This document shows positions 911-9,637 of a stretch of 64,000 nucleotides of DNA, piece after piece (position 1 is the first letter of the stretch; every line of letters begins with the position of its first letter). A model generated the notes under the pieces. The model saw only the letters and a list, made by a program, of their open reading frames with translations, was not told where the DNA came from and did no database searches. Position numbers and translations under genes: made by a program. Origin of the DNA: Actinomycetes bacterium (GTDB lineage: Bacteria > Actinomycetota > Actinomycetes > DATJPE01); NCBI GenBank assembly GCA_035506535.1, contig DATJPE010000033.1, forward strand, positions 35,506 to 99,505, given 5' to 3'.

Positions 911-3214
911 GTGACCATCGCACCTGAGACCCGAGTGGTCGAGTTGTCGGTGGGCGGGATGACCTGCGCCTCCTGCGCGGCCCGTGTGCAGAAGCGGCTG
1001 AACCGGGTCGAAGGGGTGCACGCCGCCGTCAGCTTCGCCAGCGAACGAGCCACGATCCAGGCGCCCTCGGAGCTGAGCGTCGCAGATCTCATCGCCCAGG
1101 TGGAGGCCGCGGGCTACAGCGCGGCGCCGGCGGGCGACTCCTCCGAGGAGGCTGACCACCGACGACTGCTCGACCTGCGGCGCCGGCTGGTCGTCGCGCT
1201 CGTCCTCACGATGCCGCTGGAGAATCTGTGCATCCTGTGGCCGATGGGACTCATCCCGCGGGTCGATCACTGGCAGCTGGTGCTCATCGCCCTGGCCACG
1301 CCGGTGGTGACCTGGTGCGCGTGGCCGTTCCACCGGGCCGCCTGGATCAATGCCCGGCACGGGGCGACCTCCATGGACACCCTGGTCTCCCTGGGCATCA
1401 TCGCCGCCAGCCTGTGGTCCCTCTACGCGATGTTCGCCCTCCCCTTCGACGGGCAGCGAAGCGGCGTCTCGCTGCTCTTCCGCGCGGGTGGCGGGCAGGT
1501 CTATGTCGGTGCCGCGGCTGGTGTCGCCACACTGCTCCTGATCGGCCGAGTCTACGAGGCCGGCGCCCGGCGAAGCGCACGCAGCGCACTTCGTTCGCTC
1601 GCGGCGCTGGGCGCGAAGGAAGCGACACTGCTGCTCCCGGACGACGCCGAACGACGCGTCCCGGCCGCCCTGCTGTCCTCGGGCGACCGCTTCCTCGTCC
1701 GCCCCGGCGAGACGATCGCGACGGACGGCGTGGTTGTCGCCGGATCGGCCGCGATCGACGCCTCGCAGATGACCGGCGAGTCGCGGCCGGTCCACGCGGT
1801 CGAGGGCGACGACGTGCTCGGCGGGACGACCGCTCTGGACGGTCGGCTGGTCATCGAGGCGCTACGTCCGGCAGCGGACAGCCACCTCGCCCAGATGGTC
1901 CACCTGGTCGAGCAGGCGCAGGCCGAGAAGTCCCATGCCCAACGGCTGGCCGACCGGGTGAGCGCGGTCCTCGTCCCTGCCGTCATCGTCGTGGCCGGCC
2001 TCACTCTCGTCGGCTGGCTCGCCCTCGGTGCCTCCACCGCCACCGCGGTGGGGGCCTCCATCGCCGTCCTTGTGGTGGCCTGCCCGTGCGCCCTGGGCCT
2101 CGCCACTCCGACCGCCCTCATGGTCTCAGCGGGCGCTGCCGCCGAGAACGGGGTCTTCGTCAAACGGCAGCAGGCCCTCGAGATGGCCACTGAGATCGAC
2201 ACCGTGGTGCTCGACAAGACGGGCACCGTCACGACGGGGCGTCTCGAGGTCGAAGCGGTGGGGGGCGGAGGGGGCACGAACGGCCCGGACCCCGGCTGGC
2301 TGCGGCTCGCCGGGGCGCTCGAGGCGGGCTCGGAGCATGCCGTGGGGACAGCGATCACGGCGCGAGCGCGTACCGCGTTCGGTAACCTCCCGGAGGTCCA
2401 GGACTTCGAGGCGCACCCGGGTATGGGAGCCACGGGCGCGGTGGAGGGCCACGCCGTCGCCGTGGGGAGCCCCACTTTCGTCGCCTCCCTGATCGGCGCG
2501 AGGGTCGTCGAGCCGATCGTGAGCTCGGTCGCAGCCGAGGAACGCTCGGGTCGGACGGTCGTGCTGGTCGCGGTCGATGGTCGCGTGTGCGGGTATCTCG
2601 CACTGACCGACCAGCTGCGCGACACCGCCGCAGCTGCCGTCACGGATCTCAAGCGCCTCGGTCTGCGCGTGCTCCTGGTCACGGGCGACAACCCCGGCGC
2701 CGCCCAGGGGGCCGCGGACCGGCTTGGCATCGACGAGGTTCGCTCACGTGTCCTCCCTGACGCAAAGGCCGAGCTCGTCCGGTCCCTTCAGGCCGAGGGG
2801 CATCGGGTCTGCTTCGTCGGGGACGGACTCAATGACGGTGCCGCGCTGGCCTGCGCGGACCTGGGCATGGCGATCGGGTCCGGCACCGACCTCGCCATCG
2901 ATGCCGCAGACGTCGTCCTCAGCCGCGACGACCTCGGCGTCGTCTCCACCGCGATCTCGCTGGCCAGGGCGACGGTGCGCACGATCCAGCAGAACCTCCG
3001 CTGGGCCGTCGGGTACAACCTCGTCGCGATCCCGTTCGCGATGCTGGGGTTCCTCAACCCGCTGCTCGCGGGCGCCGCCATGACGACGTCCTCGACCCTG
3101 GTGCTCTGGAACAGCCTGCGCCTGCACGAGCGATTCGCCCCGGCCTCCAACACCTACGCCGCCCGCCTGGCAGCGCTTGCACCGGGCACGGTGCCTGAGG
3201 TCGAAGCTCTCTGA
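911..3214 (+). CDS. copA: Cu(I)-translocating P1B-1 type ATPase
   Basis: N-terminal HMA GMTCASC, TGES, CPCALGLATP, DKTGT, GDGLND, TM YN and MxxSS Cu(I) signature. Confidence 0.93.
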   Translation: MTIAPETRVVELSVGGMTCASCAARVQKRLNRVEGVHAAVSFASERATIQAPSELSVADLIAQVEAAGYSAAPAGDSSEEADHRRLLDLRRRLVVALVLTMPLENLCILWPMGLIPRVDHWQLVLIALATPVVTWCAWPFHRAAWINARHGATSMDTLVSLGIIAASLWSLYAMFALPFDGQRSGVSLLFRAGGGQVYVGAAAGVATLLLIGRVYEAGARRSARSALRSLAALGAKEATLLLPDDAERRVPAALLSSGDRFLVRPGETIATDGVVVAGSAAIDASQMTGESRPVHAVEGDDVLGGTTALDGRLVIEALRPAADSHLAQMVHLVEQAQAEKSHAQRLADRVSAVLVPAVIVVAGLTLVGWLALGASTATAVGASIAVLVVACPCALGLATPTALMVSAGAAAENGVFVKRQQALEMATEIDTVVLDKTGTVTTGRLEVEAVGGGGGTNGPDPGWLRLAGALEAGSEHAVGTAITARARTAFGNLPEVQDFEAHPGMGATGAVEGHAVAVGSPTFVASLIGARVVEPIVSSVAAEERSGRTVVLVAVDGRVCGYLALTDQLRDTAAAAVTDLKRLGLRVLLVTGDNPGAAQGAADRLGIDEVRSRVLPDAKAELVRSLQAEGHRVCFVGDGLNDGAALACADLGMAIGSGTDLAIDAADVVLSRDDLGVVSTAISLARATVRTIQQNLRWAVGYNLVAIPFAMLGFLNPLLAGAAMTTSSTLVLWNSLRLHERFAPASNTYAARLAALAPGTVPEVEAL

Positions 3215-3228
3215 CGCGACGGGGAGCT

Positions 3229-4041
3229 TCACGGACCGGACGCGTGCGCAGCGCGGGTCACCCTCGGGCGGCCGGTGCTGTCGCGGAACTCCGCGTCTGC
3301 CATGGCAGCCAGCCAGTCGGTGACGGCGCCCACCTGGCTGGATGCCCTGACCACCACCGGACACCCGGGACAGGCATGAGGCGAGGGCGTGGAGTTCAGC
3401 ACGCAGCACAGGCTCCGGGCCGGCACCACCACGACAGCACCGTCGTCCGGTCGGCAGTGCAGGTACCGACCCCTGACTCCAGCCCCCAGGGCGCTGGAGA
3501 TCGCCGTCGACGCTTGCTGGAGCCAGTCCAGGTCGTCGCTGCGCCCCGAGGAGCGTGCGGCCCGGAACATGCCGGCGATGGCCGACTCCGCCGCGATCGT
3601 GGCGACCGCCCGTTCGTGGATGCGAGAACCTGCCGTGGTGGACGCGGCGACCGGTCGGAGCAGCCCGCCGATCCACGCGCCGACCGCCTCAGGCCCCGGA
3701 GGGTCATCCACCCGGGCGTCGCGCGCCAGCCAGAGTTCCTGGACCTCACCCACGGAGTCCACCACGAGGCCGAGTTGGTGAACTTGGACCTGGACCCAGA
3801 CCCCGTCCTGGAAGAGCGGTCGTGCCAGAAGTTCGATCACCGCCCAGTTCGCGAGATGCAGCGGTGTCAGCTGCAACGACCGGCGCGACAGGTCGAGGCC
3901 CGACATGCTGGACATGATCCACTCGTAGCCCCGACCGGCCACAATGTCGCCAAGCGTGATCGTGCCTGGCCTCGCGGGACCGATGCCCACCGGCGGAACG
4001 AGTCCCTCCCACGCGGTCACGCCACTGAGGTCACCCGGCAT
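3229..4041 (-). CDS. FhuF-like ferric-siderophore/metal-chelate reductase with [2Fe-2S] motif
   Basis: C-terminal CC-x10-C-x2-C (CCVLNSTPSPHACPGC); overlaps the ABC ATPase stop. Confidence 0.7.
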   Translation of the reverse strand: MPGDLSGVTAWEGLVPPVGIGPARPGTITLGDIVAGRGYEWIMSSMSGLDLSRRSLQLTPLHLANWAVIELLARPLFQDGVWVQVQVHQLGLVVDSVGEVQELWLARDARVDDPPGPEAVGAWIGGLLRPVAASTTAGSRIHERAVATIAAESAIAGMFRAARSSGRSDDLDWLQQASTAISSALGAGVRGRYLHCRPDDGAVVVVPARSLCCVLNSTPSPHACPGCPVVVRASSQVGAVTDWLAAMADAEFRDSTGRPRVTRAAHASGP

Positions 4042-4876
4042 CGGCAGGCCCTCCGCGCTCGAAGATCAGGTGGGGTCGTCCGGTCACGGGGTGCGCTACG
4101 ACATGGGACCTGACCTGGAAGACGCGGTCGATCACCGAGGGGTCCAGGGCGTCCTCGGGGGCGCCGCCGGCGACGATCGCTCCCTCCGCGATGACGTAGA
4201 CCCGGTCGCACCAGGCCCCGGCCAGGTTGAGGTCGTGAAAGGCGGCGATCACGGTCATGCCCAGCGAACGAACGTGGTGAAGCACATCGAGCTGGTAGCG
4301 GATGTCCAGGTGGTTGGTCGGCTCGTCCAGGATCAGCACGCGGGACTCCTGGACCAGCGCTCTGGCGATCAGGGTGCGCTGGCGCTCTCCTCCCGACAAC
4401 TGGTTGAACCGACGATGCGCGAGGTGAGCGAGGCCGAGGGTGTCGAGGGCGGTGAGTACCAGCTCCCGGTCGCGCTCGCCCTCGCGCTCGAAGCCTCGCA
4501 GGTGCGGAAGCCGGCCCAGAGCGGCGACCTCGGCCGCCGTGAAGTCGAAGTCACTCGGCATGTCCTGCGCGACCGCGGCGATGCTCCGCGCGGACTCCCG
4601 GGCGGTGAGCTTCCAGATGTCCTTGTGATCCATCCAGACCGCACCCTCGCTGGGACGGAGGGCGCGGTAGCAGGACCGCAGGACCGTCGTCTTGCCGCTT
4701 CCGTTGGGACCCACCAGTCCGACCATGGCCGCCGCCGGGATGTCCAGGTCCACCCCGTGCGCGATCTCGACGTCACCGATCTCGATGTGCAGTCCCTCGA
4801 TCGACAGCCTTGGGGGGCTGATGGCGCTCAAGGGAGAGGCGCGACCGTCCGCGTCGCCGACGACCCGGCTCATCAC
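4031..4876 (-). CDS. Metal-chelate ABC transporter ATP-binding protein (FecE/BtuD-like)
   Basis: GPNGSGKT Walker A, LSGGERQR signature, LILDEPTNHLD Walker B, FHDLNLA. Confidence 0.92.
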   Translation of the reverse strand: MMSRVVGDADGRASPLSAISPPRLSIEGLHIEIGDVEIAHGVDLDIPAAAMVGLVGPNGSGKTTVLRSCYRALRPSEGAVWMDHKDIWKLTARESARSIAAVAQDMPSDFDFTAAEVAALGRLPHLRGFEREGERDRELVLTALDTLGLAHLAHRRFNQLSGGERQRTLIARALVQESRVLILDEPTNHLDIRYQLDVLHHVRSLGMTVIAAFHDLNLAGAWCDRVYVIAEGAIVAGGAPEDALDPSVIDRVFQVRSHVVAHPVTGRPHLIFERGGPADAG

Positions 4877-5967
4877 CCGTCGATGTCCTGCCGTCGCAGC
4901 AGCCAGAGGAAGAACGGGGCACCGATGATCGCGGTCAGGACGCCGACATTGATCTCGTCCGGTGCGAAGATCACCCGGCCTATCAGGTCCACGGCCATGA
5001 GGTACAGGCCCCCGAGGAGCGCCACGGCGGGCAACAACCGGGTGTGCTCGGCACCGAAGACCATGCGACCGACGTGAGGGACGACGAGGCCGACGAAGCC
5101 GATCGGGCCGACCAGCGATACCACGACCGCCACGGCCAGGGACGTGATGACGAGCAGTCTGATCCTGAGCCGGTCCGGGTCCAGGCCGACCGCGGCGGAG
5201 GTCTCATCCCCCATCGCCAACCCGTTCAGCGACCGGCTGTGGAAGCGCAAGGCGGCGGCGACGAGCGCCAGCATCACGAACGCGACCGGGATCTGGTCCC
5301 ATTGCGCCGAGGCCAGGCTCCCCAGGGTCCACTCCTGCTGCGTCTCGGTGGAGTTGATGTCCGGGTTGAGCGTGCTGAAGAACTCGGTGATACCGGCGAG
5401 GGCGAAGGAGACGGCCACGCCCGCGAGCAGCAGCCGTGTGGAGCTCACCCGGCCACGGCGCCGGGCCAGCGCGAAGACGAGCCCCAAAGTGGCCACCGCG
5501 CCGAGGAAGGCCGCCACGGCCGGTGGGAAGACCCTCGACCCAGTCACGAGTGCGACGTAGAAGACGATCACGACAGCCGCCGACGCACCCGACTCGATCC
5601 CCAGGATGTACGGGTCGGCGATCGGGTTGCGTACCAGCGCCTGGACGGCCACCCCGACCAGGGCGAGCGCCCCACCGACGATGAACCCGAGCGCGACCCT
5701 CGGGGCACGGATGAGCCAGATGATGGAGTCGTCCGGCGAGGCAGTGGTCTTCGCGCCCACGATGTGATGGAAGATGATCGACCAGACCTGGCCCGCGGGG
5801 ACGCGGACCTGCCCGTAGGTCATACCGAGGGTGGCGACCAGGACGGTCAGGAGGGCGACCAGCGCCATCCGGACCGCGTACCGTCGGCGCAGCCTTGCCC
5901 CCTCGTGGCGCGCGGAGTCGACGGGGAGCGCACCGGCGGCGGTCGATGCGATGGACAGAGGGGGCAT
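4873..5967 (-). CDS. FecCD/BtuC-family ABC permease
   Basis: IRAPRV, RNPIADPYILG, LAMGDETSAAVG, GPIGFVGLVVPH. Confidence 0.92.
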   Translation of the reverse strand: MPPLSIASTAAGALPVDSARHEGARLRRRYAVRMALVALLTVLVATLGMTYGQVRVPAGQVWSIIFHHIVGAKTTASPDDSIIWLIRAPRVALGFIVGGALALVGVAVQALVRNPIADPYILGIESGASAAVVIVFYVALVTGSRVFPPAVAAFLGAVATLGLVFALARRRGRVSSTRLLLAGVAVSFALAGITEFFSTLNPDINSTETQQEWTLGSLASAQWDQIPVAFVMLALVAAALRFHSRSLNGLAMGDETSAAVGLDPDRLRIRLLVITSLAVAVVVSLVGPIGFVGLVVPHVGRMVFGAEHTRLLPAVALLGGLYLMAVDLIGRVIFAPDEINVGVLTAIIGAPFFLWLLRRQDIDG

Positions 5968-5980
5968 CAGGCGGCGACCT

Positions 5981-7093
5981 CTACAGCTTGCCTTCGCTCT
6001 TGAGGCGGATGAGGCCGTCCACGAGCAGCCTCACCGCGTCGACGGCACGGGGGGAGCCGGCGGCGGCGAAGTAGGAGATGGGCACGTAGGCCTGGTTCTT
6101 GACGGCCTCGACCGTTCTAAGCTGCGGGTCCGACTGCAGGAAGTGCTCCATCTGGGAGACGGTGAATCCACTGTCGGTGACGAGCCAGAACACGTCCGGA
6201 TCCGTCTTGACCACCTGTTCCCAGCTCACGTTCACGTTGGGATTCGTGTCGTACTCGCGGAAGGCGTACGTCGAGCCGGCCTCAGTGATGATCGCGTTCG
6301 CCGTCGTCACCCCGAGAGTGCCGGGAGAGGATGTCATTCCGTTCGCCTCCCCGATCCGGTAGCTCCCCAGCCCCGCTCTCTTGGCCAGCGCGTGATCCTG
6401 AGCCAGCTGCGCCTGGAGGCTTGCGATCAACGCAGCCGCCCTGGCCTGGACGTTGAAGATGACGCCGAGGTTGCGGATGTCGGAGTAGAGCTGGTTGAAG
6501 TCGTACAGCGGCCGGGAGCTGTACTGACCGCAGTCCGACAGCGTCTCGTAGCTGGCGACTCCCAACGCGTTCCAACGCTGCGGCGTGGCTGGGCCGATGC
6601 CCTTGGTGAAGGCGCTCGGGAAGTCCGAGACGACGATGTCCGGGCGCAACGCCACGATCGACTCCAGCGAGGGGTAGGCGTCCCCATAGCTCAGCCCGCT
6701 CAGGGTGGCGACGACCTGGGCGTCCCGGGACCACTCCTGCTCGGGCGTCTCGAACTTCGTGACCGCCACGATCCTGCTCGTCAGGCCGAGGGCGACCAGC
6801 GTGTCGGTGGCGCTGTCGTCGAGAGTGACGATCCGCTGCGGCGCCGACTGGTAGGTCTGAGTACCGTTGCAGTCTCGCACGGTCACCGGATAGCGAGTCT
6901 GGCTCGAGGGAACGGGCGCCCTCGTCGCCTCCGTGACGCCCACGCTGGACGACTCGTCAGCCCTGCCGGCACCGCAGCCCGCGGACAGCACGGCCAGTCC
7001 GATGACGACGGCTGCCATCCGGATTCCTGGCAGGAGGCGACGGCGAAGGTGCCGATGGCGCCCGACAGACCCCTTCCCCTCCAGCGTCAGCAC
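5981..7093 (-). CDS. Metal-chelate-binding lipoprotein (class III helical-backbone SBP)
   Basis: Lipobox LSAG-C, YPVTVRDCNG..APQRIVTL, SLESIVALRPDIV; GAGGAG RBS before GTG 7093; RRRLL may be a Tat motif. Confidence 0.88.
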   Translation of the reverse strand: MLTLEGKGSVGRHRHLRRRLLPGIRMAAVVIGLAVLSAGCGAGRADESSSVGVTEATRAPVPSSQTRYPVTVRDCNGTQTYQSAPQRIVTLDDSATDTLVALGLTSRIVAVTKFETPEQEWSRDAQVVATLSGLSYGDAYPSLESIVALRPDIVVSDFPSAFTKGIGPATPQRWNALGVASYETLSDCGQYSSRPLYDFNQLYSDIRNLGVIFNVQARAAALIASLQAQLAQDHALAKRAGLGSYRIGEANGMTSSPGTLGVTTANAIITEAGSTYAFREYDTNPNVNVSWEQVVKTDPDVFWLVTDSGFTVSQMEHFLQSDPQLRTVEAVKNQAYVPISYFAAAGSPRAVDAVRLLVDGLIRLKSEGKL

Positions 7094-7136
7094 GGCTGCT
7101 CCTCACATTCGGTTGGGGTCGAGGCATGGGGCCGAT

Positions 7137-7180
7137 CTTCTACATGATGTAGAGGAGACTACCTTCTACATCGTGTAGAG
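7137..7180. promoter_or_regulatory. Two tandem palindromic operators, TCTACATGATGTAGA (7139-7153) and TCTACATCGTGTAGA (7165-7179), with overlapping divergent -10 boxes between them
   Basis: 18-bp direct repeat CTTCTACATnnTGTAGAG with centres 26 bp apart; minus-strand TAGTCT (7161-7156) and plus-strand TACCTT (7160-7165). Confidence 0.75.
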
Positions 7181-7226: not shown

Positions 7227-8873
7227 ATGCCGGATGCGCTGCGCGTGAGCCGCATCCTCATGGCGTCGACGGCTCTCGCTGCCGCCTCGCTGGTCCAGGT
7301 CGCGGTCGCGGCTCCGGCGAGTGCACACGCGACCGTCGTGTCCAGCTCCCCCGCCGACGGGGCACGGCTGGCCCGCTCCCCCGCCGACGTCTCGATCACC
7401 TTCGACGAGCCGGTCAGCCTCGGGTCGACCACCTACCTGCGAGTGGTGAACAGCTCGGGCAGGCGCGTCGACTCCTCAGTGGCGTCCCATCCCGGTGGTC
7501 AAGGCCGCGTCGTCGCGGTCACCCTCCGTCCCGACCTTCCGCCAGACGTGTACGTCGCGAGCTGGCGGGTCATCTCCGCCGACTCGCACCCGGTCGCCGG
7601 GACCATCCGCTTCGCGGTCGGTGACGCAGTTCTGACGCCACTCACGACCTCCGTCCAGGTTGTGGACCGGGTGACGAGCACGGCGATGGCGGTCGCCAGG
7701 TTCACCGGCTTCGCCGGGTTGACCCTTCTCGGCGGGCTGTGGGTGGTGCTCGTGAGCTGGCCGGCAGGTCGCCGCGACCGACGGGCGCGTCTGCTCCTCT
7801 GGACCGGCTGGGGACTCGCGCTGGGGGGCACGGTGGGTGCGTTCCTGATGCAGGGTCCCTATGTTGCGGGCTCCGGGGTGGCCACGCTCGTGCGCCCTGA
7901 CGTCCTCAGCTCCACCTTCCACACAGACTACGGTCAGCTGGCCCTCGCTCGCGTGGGCTCACTCGTGGTCCTCGCGCTGGTGATGGACGCCGTGCTGAGA
8001 GGAGCGCCGACCGCCGACCGTTACCCGGCCGCCGTGCTGAGTGCGTGTGCACTCGCCGTCGCCCTGACCTACTCGGGCGCCGGACATCCCCGTACGACCC
8101 CGCCCTCGTGGATGTCAGTCGCCCTCGACTCGGCTCACCTCCTGTCGGTGTGCGCATGGCTCGGCGGTCTGGCCATGCTCGTGGTGGCGGTCCTCCCGAG
8201 ACGGTCCCCCGAACTGGTGACCGTGGTCCTGCCTGCCGTCTCGAACGTGGCGACGGTCGCCGTCGTGGTGATCGCGGTGTCCGGCGCCTATGCAGCCTTC
8301 CGCGGGGTCGGCACGCTGCAGGCGCTGACGTCCACCTATGCCCTTCTCGTCGCGGGCAAGGTCCTGCTCTTCGGCGGGCTCCTGGGCATCGGGGCGTGCA
8401 GCCGAGCCTGTGTCCGCCGCCTGGCGGCGACGAGCCGCCGCCCCGACCGCCTCCGTCACCTGGTGACGGCCGAGCTCAGCGTCGCCACAGTGGTGCTCGC
8501 CCTCACCTCGGTTCTCGTCGCGCAGCCCCGCGGCCCGGAGGCCGTGGCCACCGAACAGTCCCGGCCGGTCTCCGCGCAGGCAACTCTCGGGCCCGGTCGC
8601 TCGGTACGGGTGATAGTCGAACCCGGACGGCACGGCGTGGTCGCCGTGTTCGTCACGGTGACGGGCGAAGTTGCGCGCCGGATCACGGTCGATGCGTCGC
8701 TGCCGCGTCAGGAGCTCGGCCCGATCCCTGTCCCGCTCGTGCCCGACGGCCCACACCGGTACTCAGCCAGCGGTGTCCTGCTGCCCCATGCCGGCGTCTG
8801 GCGATTCACGGTGGTTGTCGGCACCTCGGAGTTCGACGCCACGACCACAGCGGTATCGATCCACCTGCACTGA
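7227..8873 (+). CDS. CopC-CopD fusion copper uptake protein (YcnJ-like)
   Basis: Signal peptide ending ASA-H (HATVVSSSP), WRVISADSHP CopC site, multi-TM CopD domain (HLLSVCAWLGGL), C-terminal extracytoplasmic domain. Confidence 0.9.
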   Translation: MPDALRVSRILMASTALAAASLVQVAVAAPASAHATVVSSSPADGARLARSPADVSITFDEPVSLGSTTYLRVVNSSGRRVDSSVASHPGGQGRVVAVTLRPDLPPDVYVASWRVISADSHPVAGTIRFAVGDAVLTPLTTSVQVVDRVTSTAMAVARFTGFAGLTLLGGLWVVLVSWPAGRRDRRARLLLWTGWGLALGGTVGAFLMQGPYVAGSGVATLVRPDVLSSTFHTDYGQLALARVGSLVVLALVMDAVLRGAPTADRYPAAVLSACALAVALTYSGAGHPRTTPPSWMSVALDSAHLLSVCAWLGGLAMLVVAVLPRRSPELVTVVLPAVSNVATVAVVVIAVSGAYAAFRGVGTLQALTSTYALLVAGKVLLFGGLLGIGACSRACVRRLAATSRRPDRLRHLVTAELSVATVVLALTSVLVAQPRGPEAVATEQSRPVSAQATLGPGRSVRVIVEPGRHGVVAVFVTVTGEVARRITVDASLPRQELGPIPVPLVPDGPHRYSASGVLLPHAGVWRFTVVVGTSEFDATTTAVSIHLH

Positions 8874-8884
8874 AGGGAACCTGC

Positions 8885-9637
8885 ATGATCCACATCACGC
8901 CACGACGTGCTGCTCTCGTCGCCACGATCACGGCCGCGATCGTCGTGCTGCCGGCCGTGGCAGCTTCCGCCCATGTCACGGTCAGCGCGCCCGGAGCGAC
9001 CCAGGGGGGAACCGACCAGGAGATCACGTTCCGGGTACCGGTGGAGAAGGACGTGGACACCGTGGGGCTCAAGGTCGCCCTTCCGACGGATACACCGATC
9101 GCCGACATCCTCGTGGAGCCCGTCCCCGGCTGGACTCACACGGAGAAGACCATCACCTTGAAGACTCCCATCGTCACTGACGACGGCAACATCACCGAGG
9201 CCGTCTCCGAGGTGGACTGGGCAGCCACGCCCGGACACGGCCTGACGCCAGGCGAGTTCGGCGCGTTCACGGTGATCGCCGGCCTGCTGCCGAAGACCCC
9301 GACGTTGACCTTCAAGGCGATCCAGGTCTACGCCGACGGGTCGCAGGTCGACTGGACACAGACTGAAGCTCCGGGGAGCACGGCAGAGCTGGACAACCCG
9401 GCTCCCGTGCTGGCCCTCGCCCCCGCGGCCACGACCAGTGGCTCGACGACGTCCTCCGCGAGCCCGCTGGCATCCGAAGCGGCGTCTTCCGAGGCCTCGA
9501 CCGGAGCGGCTTCCTCCGGCGGCAGCGGGTCCTCCAGCACGTCGACGTGGGCACTGGTGCTCAGCGTTCTCGCCCTGGTCGCAGCGCTCGCCGCACTGGG
9601 GGTGGTGGCCGCCAGGACCCGGGCACGGCGAGCGTGA
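8885..9637 (+). CDS. ycnI: YcnI-family (DUF1775) copper-binding membrane protein
   Basis: ASA-HVTV, FRVPVE, VEPVPGW, FKAIQVYADG..VDW, C-terminal TM; ATG 8885 after AAGGGA. Confidence 0.88.
   Translation: MIHITPRRAALVATITAAIVVLPAVAASAHVTVSAPGATQGGTDQEITFRVPVEKDVDTVGLKVALPTDTPIADILVEPVPGWTHTEKTITLKTPIVTDDGNITEAVSEVDWAATPGHGLTPGEFGAFTVIAGLLPKTPTLTFKAIQVYADGSQVDWTQTEAPGSTAELDNPAPVLALAPAATTSGSTTSSASPLASEAASSEASTGAASSGGSGSSSTSTWALVLSVLALVAALAALGVVAARTRARRA

Follow-up and report, generated by a model that had tools for sequence, protein, structure and literature searches.

Gene organization of the locus

The window, i.e., the whole 64-kb stretch of DNA that was analysed, carries two divergent operons separated by a gap of 133 bp. 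On the plus strand lies copCD (7227..8873), coding for a CopC-CopD fusion, a YcnJ-like copper importer, with Pfam matches to CopC and CopD and scores below the cut-off of the NCBIfam CopC and CopD models; its SD sequence, GAGGAG, is located 5 nt upstream of the start codon. On the 3' side follows ycnI (8885..9637, plus strand) for a copper-binding protein of the DUF1775 family (Pfam, E 1.6e-33). The minus strand encodes a chelate-type ABC importer consisting of a substrate-binding lipoprotein (5981..7093, Pfam Peripla_BP_2), a FecCD-type permease (4873..5967, Pfam FecCD, E 1e-90), an ABC ATPase (4031..4876, Pfam ABC_tran) and the product of a last gene (3229..4041), an open reading frame that overlaps the ATPase gene and had no match in Pfam or NCBIfam. 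With Peripla_BP_2, FecCD and ABC ATPase on the minus strand and CopC-CopD and DUF1775 on the plus strand, the Pfam assignments bear out the description of the flanking genes in an earlier reading that was made from the letters alone (the sequence-only reading). Genes for a P1B copper ATPase (911-3214) and a DUF5134 protein flank the two operons (Pfam).

The gene of the substrate-binding lipoprotein has a GTG start codon with an SD sequence at 7093. Public gene callers begin at 7018 (345 aa); in the alignment, homologs also have long charged N-termini. The top NCBIfam match of the protein was 'putative F420-0 ABC transporter', with 130 bits against a cut-off of 392 bits. Only 13 proteins make up its very small family at E <= 1e-15; apart from the lipobox cysteine, two further cysteines are invariant in them. 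Next to one homolog (L212) lie a gene of the Fur family, a NicO gene and another set of FecCD, ABC and binding-protein genes, on account of which the cargo of the importer family may be nickel, cobalt or another metal chelate. Upstream of two binding-protein homologs (70-78 % identical), a conserved non-coding leader of ~200 nt was located inside gaps of 600-750 bp (L212:5650-5855 and L215:6800-7000). This leader is absent from the window and had no match in Rfam; it is a candidate for an undescribed cis-regulatory RNA.

Twin palindromes in the divergent gap

The gap between the two operons contains two perfect 6-3-6 palindromes of the form TCTACA-N3-TGTAGA, site 1 at 7139-7153 (TCTACAtgaTGTAGA, i.e., TCTACATGATGTAGA; centre 7146) and site 2 at 7165-7179 (TCTACAtcgTGTAGA, i.e., TCTACATCGTGTAGA; centre 7172), with a centre-to-centre distance of 26 bp. 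The pair of 15-bp palindromes reported by the sequence-only reading was thus confirmed, and the repeated unit, cTTCTACATnnTGTAGAG, proved to be even longer: the dyads are near-identical 17-base palindromes. As candidate operators, without strand assignment, we consider operator 1 (TTCTACatgatGTAGAG, 7138..7154, core palindrome 7139-7153) and operator 2 (TTCTACatcgtGTAGAG, 7164..7180, core palindrome 7165-7179). Each has one mismatch to TTCTAC-N5-GTAGAA, in the last base (A to G). A 26-nt tandem direct repeat (7128-7153 and 7154-7179, 77 % identical) contains both of them, hence the pair may have originated from the duplication of one site.

In the 64 kb of the window, these two sites were the only matches at up to 2 mismatches, compared to a mean of 0.21 in shuffled sequences; the base composition predicts 0.00016 exact palindrome matches per 64 kb. 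The sites exist far beyond chance. In 955 kb of related high-GC DNA, TTCTAC-N5-GTAGAA was not found at up to 1 mismatch. The block of 43 bp has a G+C content of 42 % compared to 72 % for the window, in line with the earlier statement of an AT-rich repeat in a high-GC background. The dyad pair occupies the centre of the gap, the dyad centres being 53 and 55 bp away from the nearer start codon. A search of the gap for known RNA elements yielded none at E up to 1. The locus was present in just three DNA runs, all of them wetland metagenomes, and in no RNA run. A strain variant in one wetland run (X2) differed from the window by two SNPs in 280 nt, G7180A and T7205C. G7180A, the sole strain variant inside the operator region, turns site 2 into the perfect 17-bp palindrome TTCTACatcgtGTAGAA, a full match to the consensus.

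A scan of the gap with the sigma-70 consensus revealed no promoter. Each strand has a single TANNNT hexamer in the 133-bp gap, and both hexamers are located between the palindromes, where the sequence-only reading had placed -10-like elements for the two strands: the candidate -10 TACCTT for copCD-ycnI (7160..7165, plus strand) and the candidate -10 TAGTCT for the ABC importer operon (7161 to 7156, minus strand), which share their central TA. From these hexamers, transcription would start at about 7171-7173 on the plus strand, inside operator 2, and at about 7148-7150 on the minus strand, inside operator 1. The start sites proposed before, about 7172 on plus and about 7149 on minus and each within one palindrome, agree with these predicted positions.

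Association of twin sites with BlaI-family genes

Metagenome contigs were scanned for two copies of CTACA-N3-TGTAG separated by 3-33 bases, and at least 120 loci were obtained. Among the matches listed, the centre-to-centre spacing had a sharp peak at 25-26 bp. A Penicillinase_R (BlaI/MecI/CopY)-like gene adjoined the sites at 29 of the 58 loci with a spacing of 23-27 bp and at three of the 46 loci with a wider spacing, again among the matches listed; these genes were counted with a BlaI-like HMM if the gene start was right beside the sites, with tandem arrays left out. Pfam confirmed PF03965 in all eight BlaI-like genes that were tested. Several low-GC loci (L146, L086) have cores identical to the TCTACATGATGTAGA and TTCTACATCGTGTAGA of the window. 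L086 adjoins a full-length BlaI-like gene; L146 has only fragmentary BlaI-like matches just downstream and does not count among the 29.

Other twin sites had different neighbours. On a contig of 74 % G+C (L168:2558-2597), the region between the genes for a TetR-family protein and a DUF2269 membrane protein has twin ACTACA-N3-TGTAGT sites at a distance of 27 bp. As these sites adjoin a TetR-family gene, the CTACA-N3-TGTAG core is not exclusive to BlaI proteins. Nine related contigs among the matches listed, with 58-66 % G+C (L125, L119, L155, L157, L174, L181, L194, L190, L140), have twin GCTACA-N3-TGTAG sites at 26 bp that surround a TTGACA box; a BlaI gene is not in the vicinity. In L125, L155 and L190, translation beside the sites gave a small protein, RFIARVDAHLP...DRQLEGWE.RYARF; the one of the three that was tested had no match in Pfam.

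The same box at blaI-protease loci

In a high-GC Leifsonia contig (L192), cTTCTACacggtGTAGAAg and cTTCTACagagtGTAGAAc are located between cydA and a blaI-like gene, which is followed by a gene for an M48/M56 protease of 314 aa without a sensor domain. The arrangement of blaI and protease genes divergent from cydABDC was also observed in three further lineages, with regulators 52-59 % identical to the L192 protein (L192:1-2741, L202:1-7321, L205:160-7331, L209:1-7353). The gaps of ~100 bp at these loci hold between one and three copies of TTCTAC-N5-GTAGAA, spaced by 24-25 bp. Upstream of the blaI-like genes, perfect or near-perfect boxes were present in two copies in L192, in three copies in L209 and in two copies plus a half-site in L202; the box of L205 reads CTCTAC..GTAGAG and that of L207 has one mismatch. 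Thus five loci from organisms other than that of the window (L192, L202, L205, L207, L209) carry the same box at the promoter of a PF03965 gene, and the window sites match these boxes at the autoregulated promoters of an actinobacterial BlaI subfamily. One of the L209 boxes takes up precisely the spacer that separates TTGACT from CACAAT, a repressor position. Across the blaI promoter boxes, the half-sites are kept and the central 5 bases vary.

The box-bearing regulators have the recognition helix TTVLTVLSRLE in common, and their only match in the PDB was 2G9W, BlaI of M. tuberculosis (E 3e-15). Their partner proteases (312-355 aa) consist of M48/M56 only and lack a penicillin-binding sensor domain; an alignment of six of them revealed no obvious conserved Met/His/Cys metal-ligand loop. 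A beta-lactamase gene was not found beside any of the loci examined. The recurrent neighbour was cydABDC, which encodes a copper-free oxidase. From the conserved divergent synteny and the boxes, cydABDC may belong to the regulon of the actinobacterial BlaI. A literature search yielded no paper on a link between blaI-protease and cydABDC genes. On a further contig (L170:860-940), twin BlaI-type boxes, CTCTACagcttGTAGTT and TACTACaagctGTAGAG, lie 30 bp apart and 23 bp upstream of cydA, with no blaI gene within 700 bp of these boxes. This cydA is likely a second target regulated in trans. Just beyond the boxes, L170 has a short tandem repeat, which reads as HADHAG units in one frame.

Conservation at orthologous promoters

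For the footprinting of copCD, 80 loci were collected from genomes of Jatrophihabitans-like bacteria, Pseudonocardiales and Actinoplanes, with a top identity of 47 %. Conservation of the motif at orthologous copCD promoters had been set in advance as the check that might refute the sequence-only reading, and this expectation failed: neither the box nor any AT-rich palindrome was located upstream of copCD in any of the 80 relatives. The copCD-ycnI pair is kept in these relatives; there, the ABC importer is not adjacent and copCD follows other genes. The genes for close relatives of the binding protein (65-78 % identity) also have no box upstream. As the orthologous copCD promoters lack the motif, we read its link to the promoters of the window as a lineage-specific recruitment rather than an ancestral trait.

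Candidate regulator and proposed mechanism

A Penicillinase_R-like open reading frame was not detected in the 64-kb window by hmmsearch with a BlaI HMM or by tblastn, which agrees with the proposed encoding of the repressor in trans. Ten small open reading frames of the window, picked by size and codon bias, included no transcription factor, and a Pfam search revealed no TetR or other regulator gene flanking the gap. The public record of the window belongs to assembly ERZ27256505; none of the BlaI homologs that were looked up came from there.

The assignment to the BlaI/MecI/CopY family, also made by the sequence-only reading, appears well founded in the association of twin sites with PF03965 genes and in the exact box at actinobacterial blaI promoters. 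The window sites fit an operator of the BlaI family on every testable feature, namely the dyad core, the presence of two dyads and the box at PF03965 promoters of other organisms. The original interpretation, a BlaI-family repressor encoded in trans, is thereby supported. We consider it likely that the palindromes are twin operators of a trans-encoded Penicillinase_R repressor, one dimer binding to each dyad, and that both operons are co-repressed.

Dimers of the BlaI family bind to dyads, and true targets of BlaI_0696 of C. thermocellum have two dyads each in a 6-N5-6 layout (PMC8457756). For CopY and BlaI, it has been suggested that two operators obstruct the -35 region and RNA polymerase (PMC7253601). 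In the organism of the window, a winged-helix Penicillinase_R repressor from the actinobacterial subfamily nearest to BlaI of M. tuberculosis (Rv1846c), encoded in trans, would bind with one dimer per TTCTAC-N5-GTAGAR dyad. A spacing of 26 bp corresponds to about 2.5 helical turns, which would place the two dimers approximately on opposite sides of the double helix. Each dimer would lie over the spacer and -35 region of one promoter and, at the same time, over the start site of the opposite one; because of this double block, occupation of both dyads would silence copCD-ycnI and the chelate ABC importer together. We infer the co-control by one repressor from this geometry. Once the repressor is lost, most likely because its partner protease cleaves it, the operons would be derepressed.

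As the targets are copper-import genes, copper limitation or a failing heme-copper oxidase would be the favoured signal; copper or respiratory status is plausible in this role as an inference from the target genes. The regulon of M. tuberculosis BlaI reportedly includes sigC and the atp operon (PMC8265638). SigC drives copper acquisition, with ctpB and the chalkophore genes expressed under copper starvation, and the cyd genes rise in a copper-starved sigC mutant of M. tuberculosis (PMC7924339). YcnJ (CopCD) feeds copper to the aa3 oxidase during copper starvation (PMC13344008). A repressor that is lost upon copper or oxidase failure would tie together these observations on SigC and YcnJ with cydABDC and copper import. 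With considerable reserve, we therefore put forward that BlaI of the Rv1846c type and its sensor-less M48/M56 protease, a pair common throughout Actinobacteria, may form a switch for copper supply and heme-copper oxidase, a counterpart of PetR/PetP, rather than an antibiotic sensor; this possibility is tentative, with more speaking for caution than for acceptance. If it is true, the regulon would comprise cydABDC, copper import (here copCD-ycnI and the chelate importer) and, in M. tuberculosis, sigC and atp.

Alternative explanations

One alternative concerns only the signal and leaves the identity of the element untouched. The sites would be a BlaI-type operator, but the repressor would respond to envelope or beta-lactam stress or to copper excess, with the copper genes as part of a stress or resistance response. 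Classical BlaR1 senses beta-lactams, CopC and CopD were originally named resistance proteins, PetP cleaves PetR upon copper addition (bioRxiv 10.1101/2020.07.31.226407), and BlaI of M. tuberculosis reportedly represses blaC (cited in PMC8265638). The partner proteases of the box-bearing regulators, however, are devoid of the sensor domain for such antibiotics, their genes have cydABDC as recurrent neighbour instead of a beta-lactamase gene, and CopCD of the YcnJ type works in copper starvation (PMC13344008). We regard a stress signal as unlikely.

A second alternative assigns the dyads to a regulator of another family, TetR or a small DNA-binding protein, that recognises CTACA-N3-TGTAG. The twin sites beside the TetR gene in L168 and the nine loci of the L125 group, with sites around a TTGACA box and no BlaI gene nearby, are in favour of it, as is the lack of an adjacent PF03965 gene at roughly half of the listed matches that have a spacing of 23-27 bp. 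Against it, the outer bases of the window sites, TTCTAC...GTAGAG, equal those of the BlaI-linked boxes except for the last base, whereas the TetR-linked sites with cACTAC...GTAGTt are unlike them, and the outer bases in the L125 group differ from those of the window as well. Many loci without an adjacent BlaI gene may simply be trans targets, as the cydA of L170 appears to be. In the window itself, the gap is not flanked by a gene for TetR or another regulator, and none was among the ten small open reading frames scanned. An operator of another family is thus quite improbable.

A structural element, in which the palindromes pair into a 17-bp hairpin or cruciform and act as terminator, RNA stability element or small mobile repeat, is very improbable: the arms 7139-7153 and 7165-7179 are 93 % complementary and a 101-nt RNA folds with -42.3 kcal/mol (z = -4.2 against shuffles), but any two similar palindromes can pair, so that the fold is not independent evidence, a U-tract and a terminator call are missing, both operons point away from the block and leave nothing upstream to terminate, the sole -10-like hexamers are in the loop so that neither transcript would hold both arms, the window has no further copy, and half-sites kept around a variable centre, as in the blaI boxes, are the pattern of a protein-binding site.

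Implications for copper uptake

With twin BlaI operators as the preferred reading, the locus suggests that a BlaI-type regulator previously connected with beta-lactamase and respiratory genes governs copper uptake as well in this organism. Literature searches revealed no regulator of copper import of the copCD-ycnI type in Actinobacteria. The known targets of M. tuberculosis BlaI, i.e., ATP synthase, sigC and blaC, do not fit a pure antibiotic response. A box at a copper importer, a regulator beside the bd oxidase and a cyanobacterial cousin acting as copper switch lead to the idea that the system matches respiration and copper acquisition to the copper supply. If the copper switch were real, the twin operator would be the first direct cis link of the BlaI-type family to copper uptake; responses to copper starvation matter to the physiology of M. 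tuberculosis. If the switch is wrong, the locus would still present a clean case of two metal-uptake operons recruited in a lineage-specific manner into a BlaI-type regulon.

Comparison with known systems

The boxes of CsoR/RicR (GC-rich, with a run of C or G), Fur/Zur/IdeR, LexA and NrdR were rejected on sequence, by comparison with the motifs of these regulators. CopY/CopR of Firmicutes belongs to the same superfamily, regulates copper-related genes and is proposed to use two operators at each promoter (PMC7253601). Its cop box, KACA-N2-TGTM within RNYKACANNTGTMRNY, is even-spaced (PMC7253601), whereas the window sites have N3; TACA-N2-TGTA is absent from the window, and the sequence-only reading had already distinguished the element from the classic cop box. 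CopY serves copper export and senses copper by means of a C-terminal metal site, CxC or CxCx4CxC; the box-bearing actinobacterial regulators are without C-terminal CxC and reach only 27-37 bits against TIGR02698, which has a cut-off of 122 bits. Near the P1B ATPase gene (911-3214), a box was not found at up to 2 mismatches. The cop box was rejected for the N3 spacing, for the related regulators below the cut-off of the CopY model and without CxC, and for the lack of a site at the export ATPase gene.

In S. aureus, two dyads are located in the divergent intergenic region of blaZ and blaR1-blaI, and repression acts both ways. The distance of 26 bp in the window is close to the 24-25 bp of the BlaI-linked arrays and to the peak at 25-26 bp of the metagenome twin sites (about 2.3-2.5 turns). 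The sites of BlaI_0696 of C. thermocellum, GTCTAT-N5-ATAGAC, are likewise paired at every true target (PMC8457756). The BlaI-BlaR1 systems of S. aureus and B. licheniformis as well as BlaI_0696 differ from the window in that the operators are beside the gene of their own regulator, the response is to beta-lactams via a penicillin-binding sensor domain, and the targets are beta-lactamase or cell-wall genes.

BlaI/BlaR of M. tuberculosis (Rv1846c/Rv1845c) is similar in several respects: 2G9W is the only solved structure matched by the box-bearing regulators, these regulators are paired with an M48/M56 protease that lacks a sensor, the half-sites are arranged as 6-N5-6, and the regulon is tied to respiration, in M. 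tuberculosis by atp and sigC, as reported in papers that cite Sala et al. 2009, and here by synteny with cydABDC. The motif of M. tuberculosis BlaI is reportedly TAC[GT]AC-N5-GT[AC]GTA; the window sites agree with this form in 5 of 6 positions of the left half-site and in 4 of 6 of the right, and the second base of the half-site differs. The targets in the window, copper-import genes and a chelate ABC importer, are unreported for M. tuberculosis BlaI and, unlike in that system, are not beside the regulator gene.

PetR/PetP of Synechocystis sp. PCC 6803 (Slr0240/Slr0241) is a pair of a BlaI/CopY-family factor and a sensor-less M48/M56 protease. This cyanobacterial pair has four target genes, and in Synechocystis no importer is among them. 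PetP degrades PetR when copper is present (bioRxiv 10.1101/2020.07.31.226407), and PetR is also an activator; a repressor of copper uptake that responds to copper limitation needs the opposite sign. Factor and protease are co-transcribed, as matched by the box-bearing regulators of other organisms. PetR binds GACA-N3-TGTC (bioRxiv 10.1101/2020.07.31.226407), so the operator geometry is the same, GAC-N5-GTC or GACA-N3-TGTC compared to TAC-N5-GTA or TACA-N3-TGTA in the window, and the specificity base differs, with a half-site GACA for PetR and CTACA for the window. The repressing site of PetR, too, is located between -35 and -10. Under the control of the pair, the cell changes over from plastocyanin to cytochrome c6 or back (bioRxiv 10.1101/2020.07.31.226407), that is, it controls the choice between a copper-dependent and a copper-free electron carrier.
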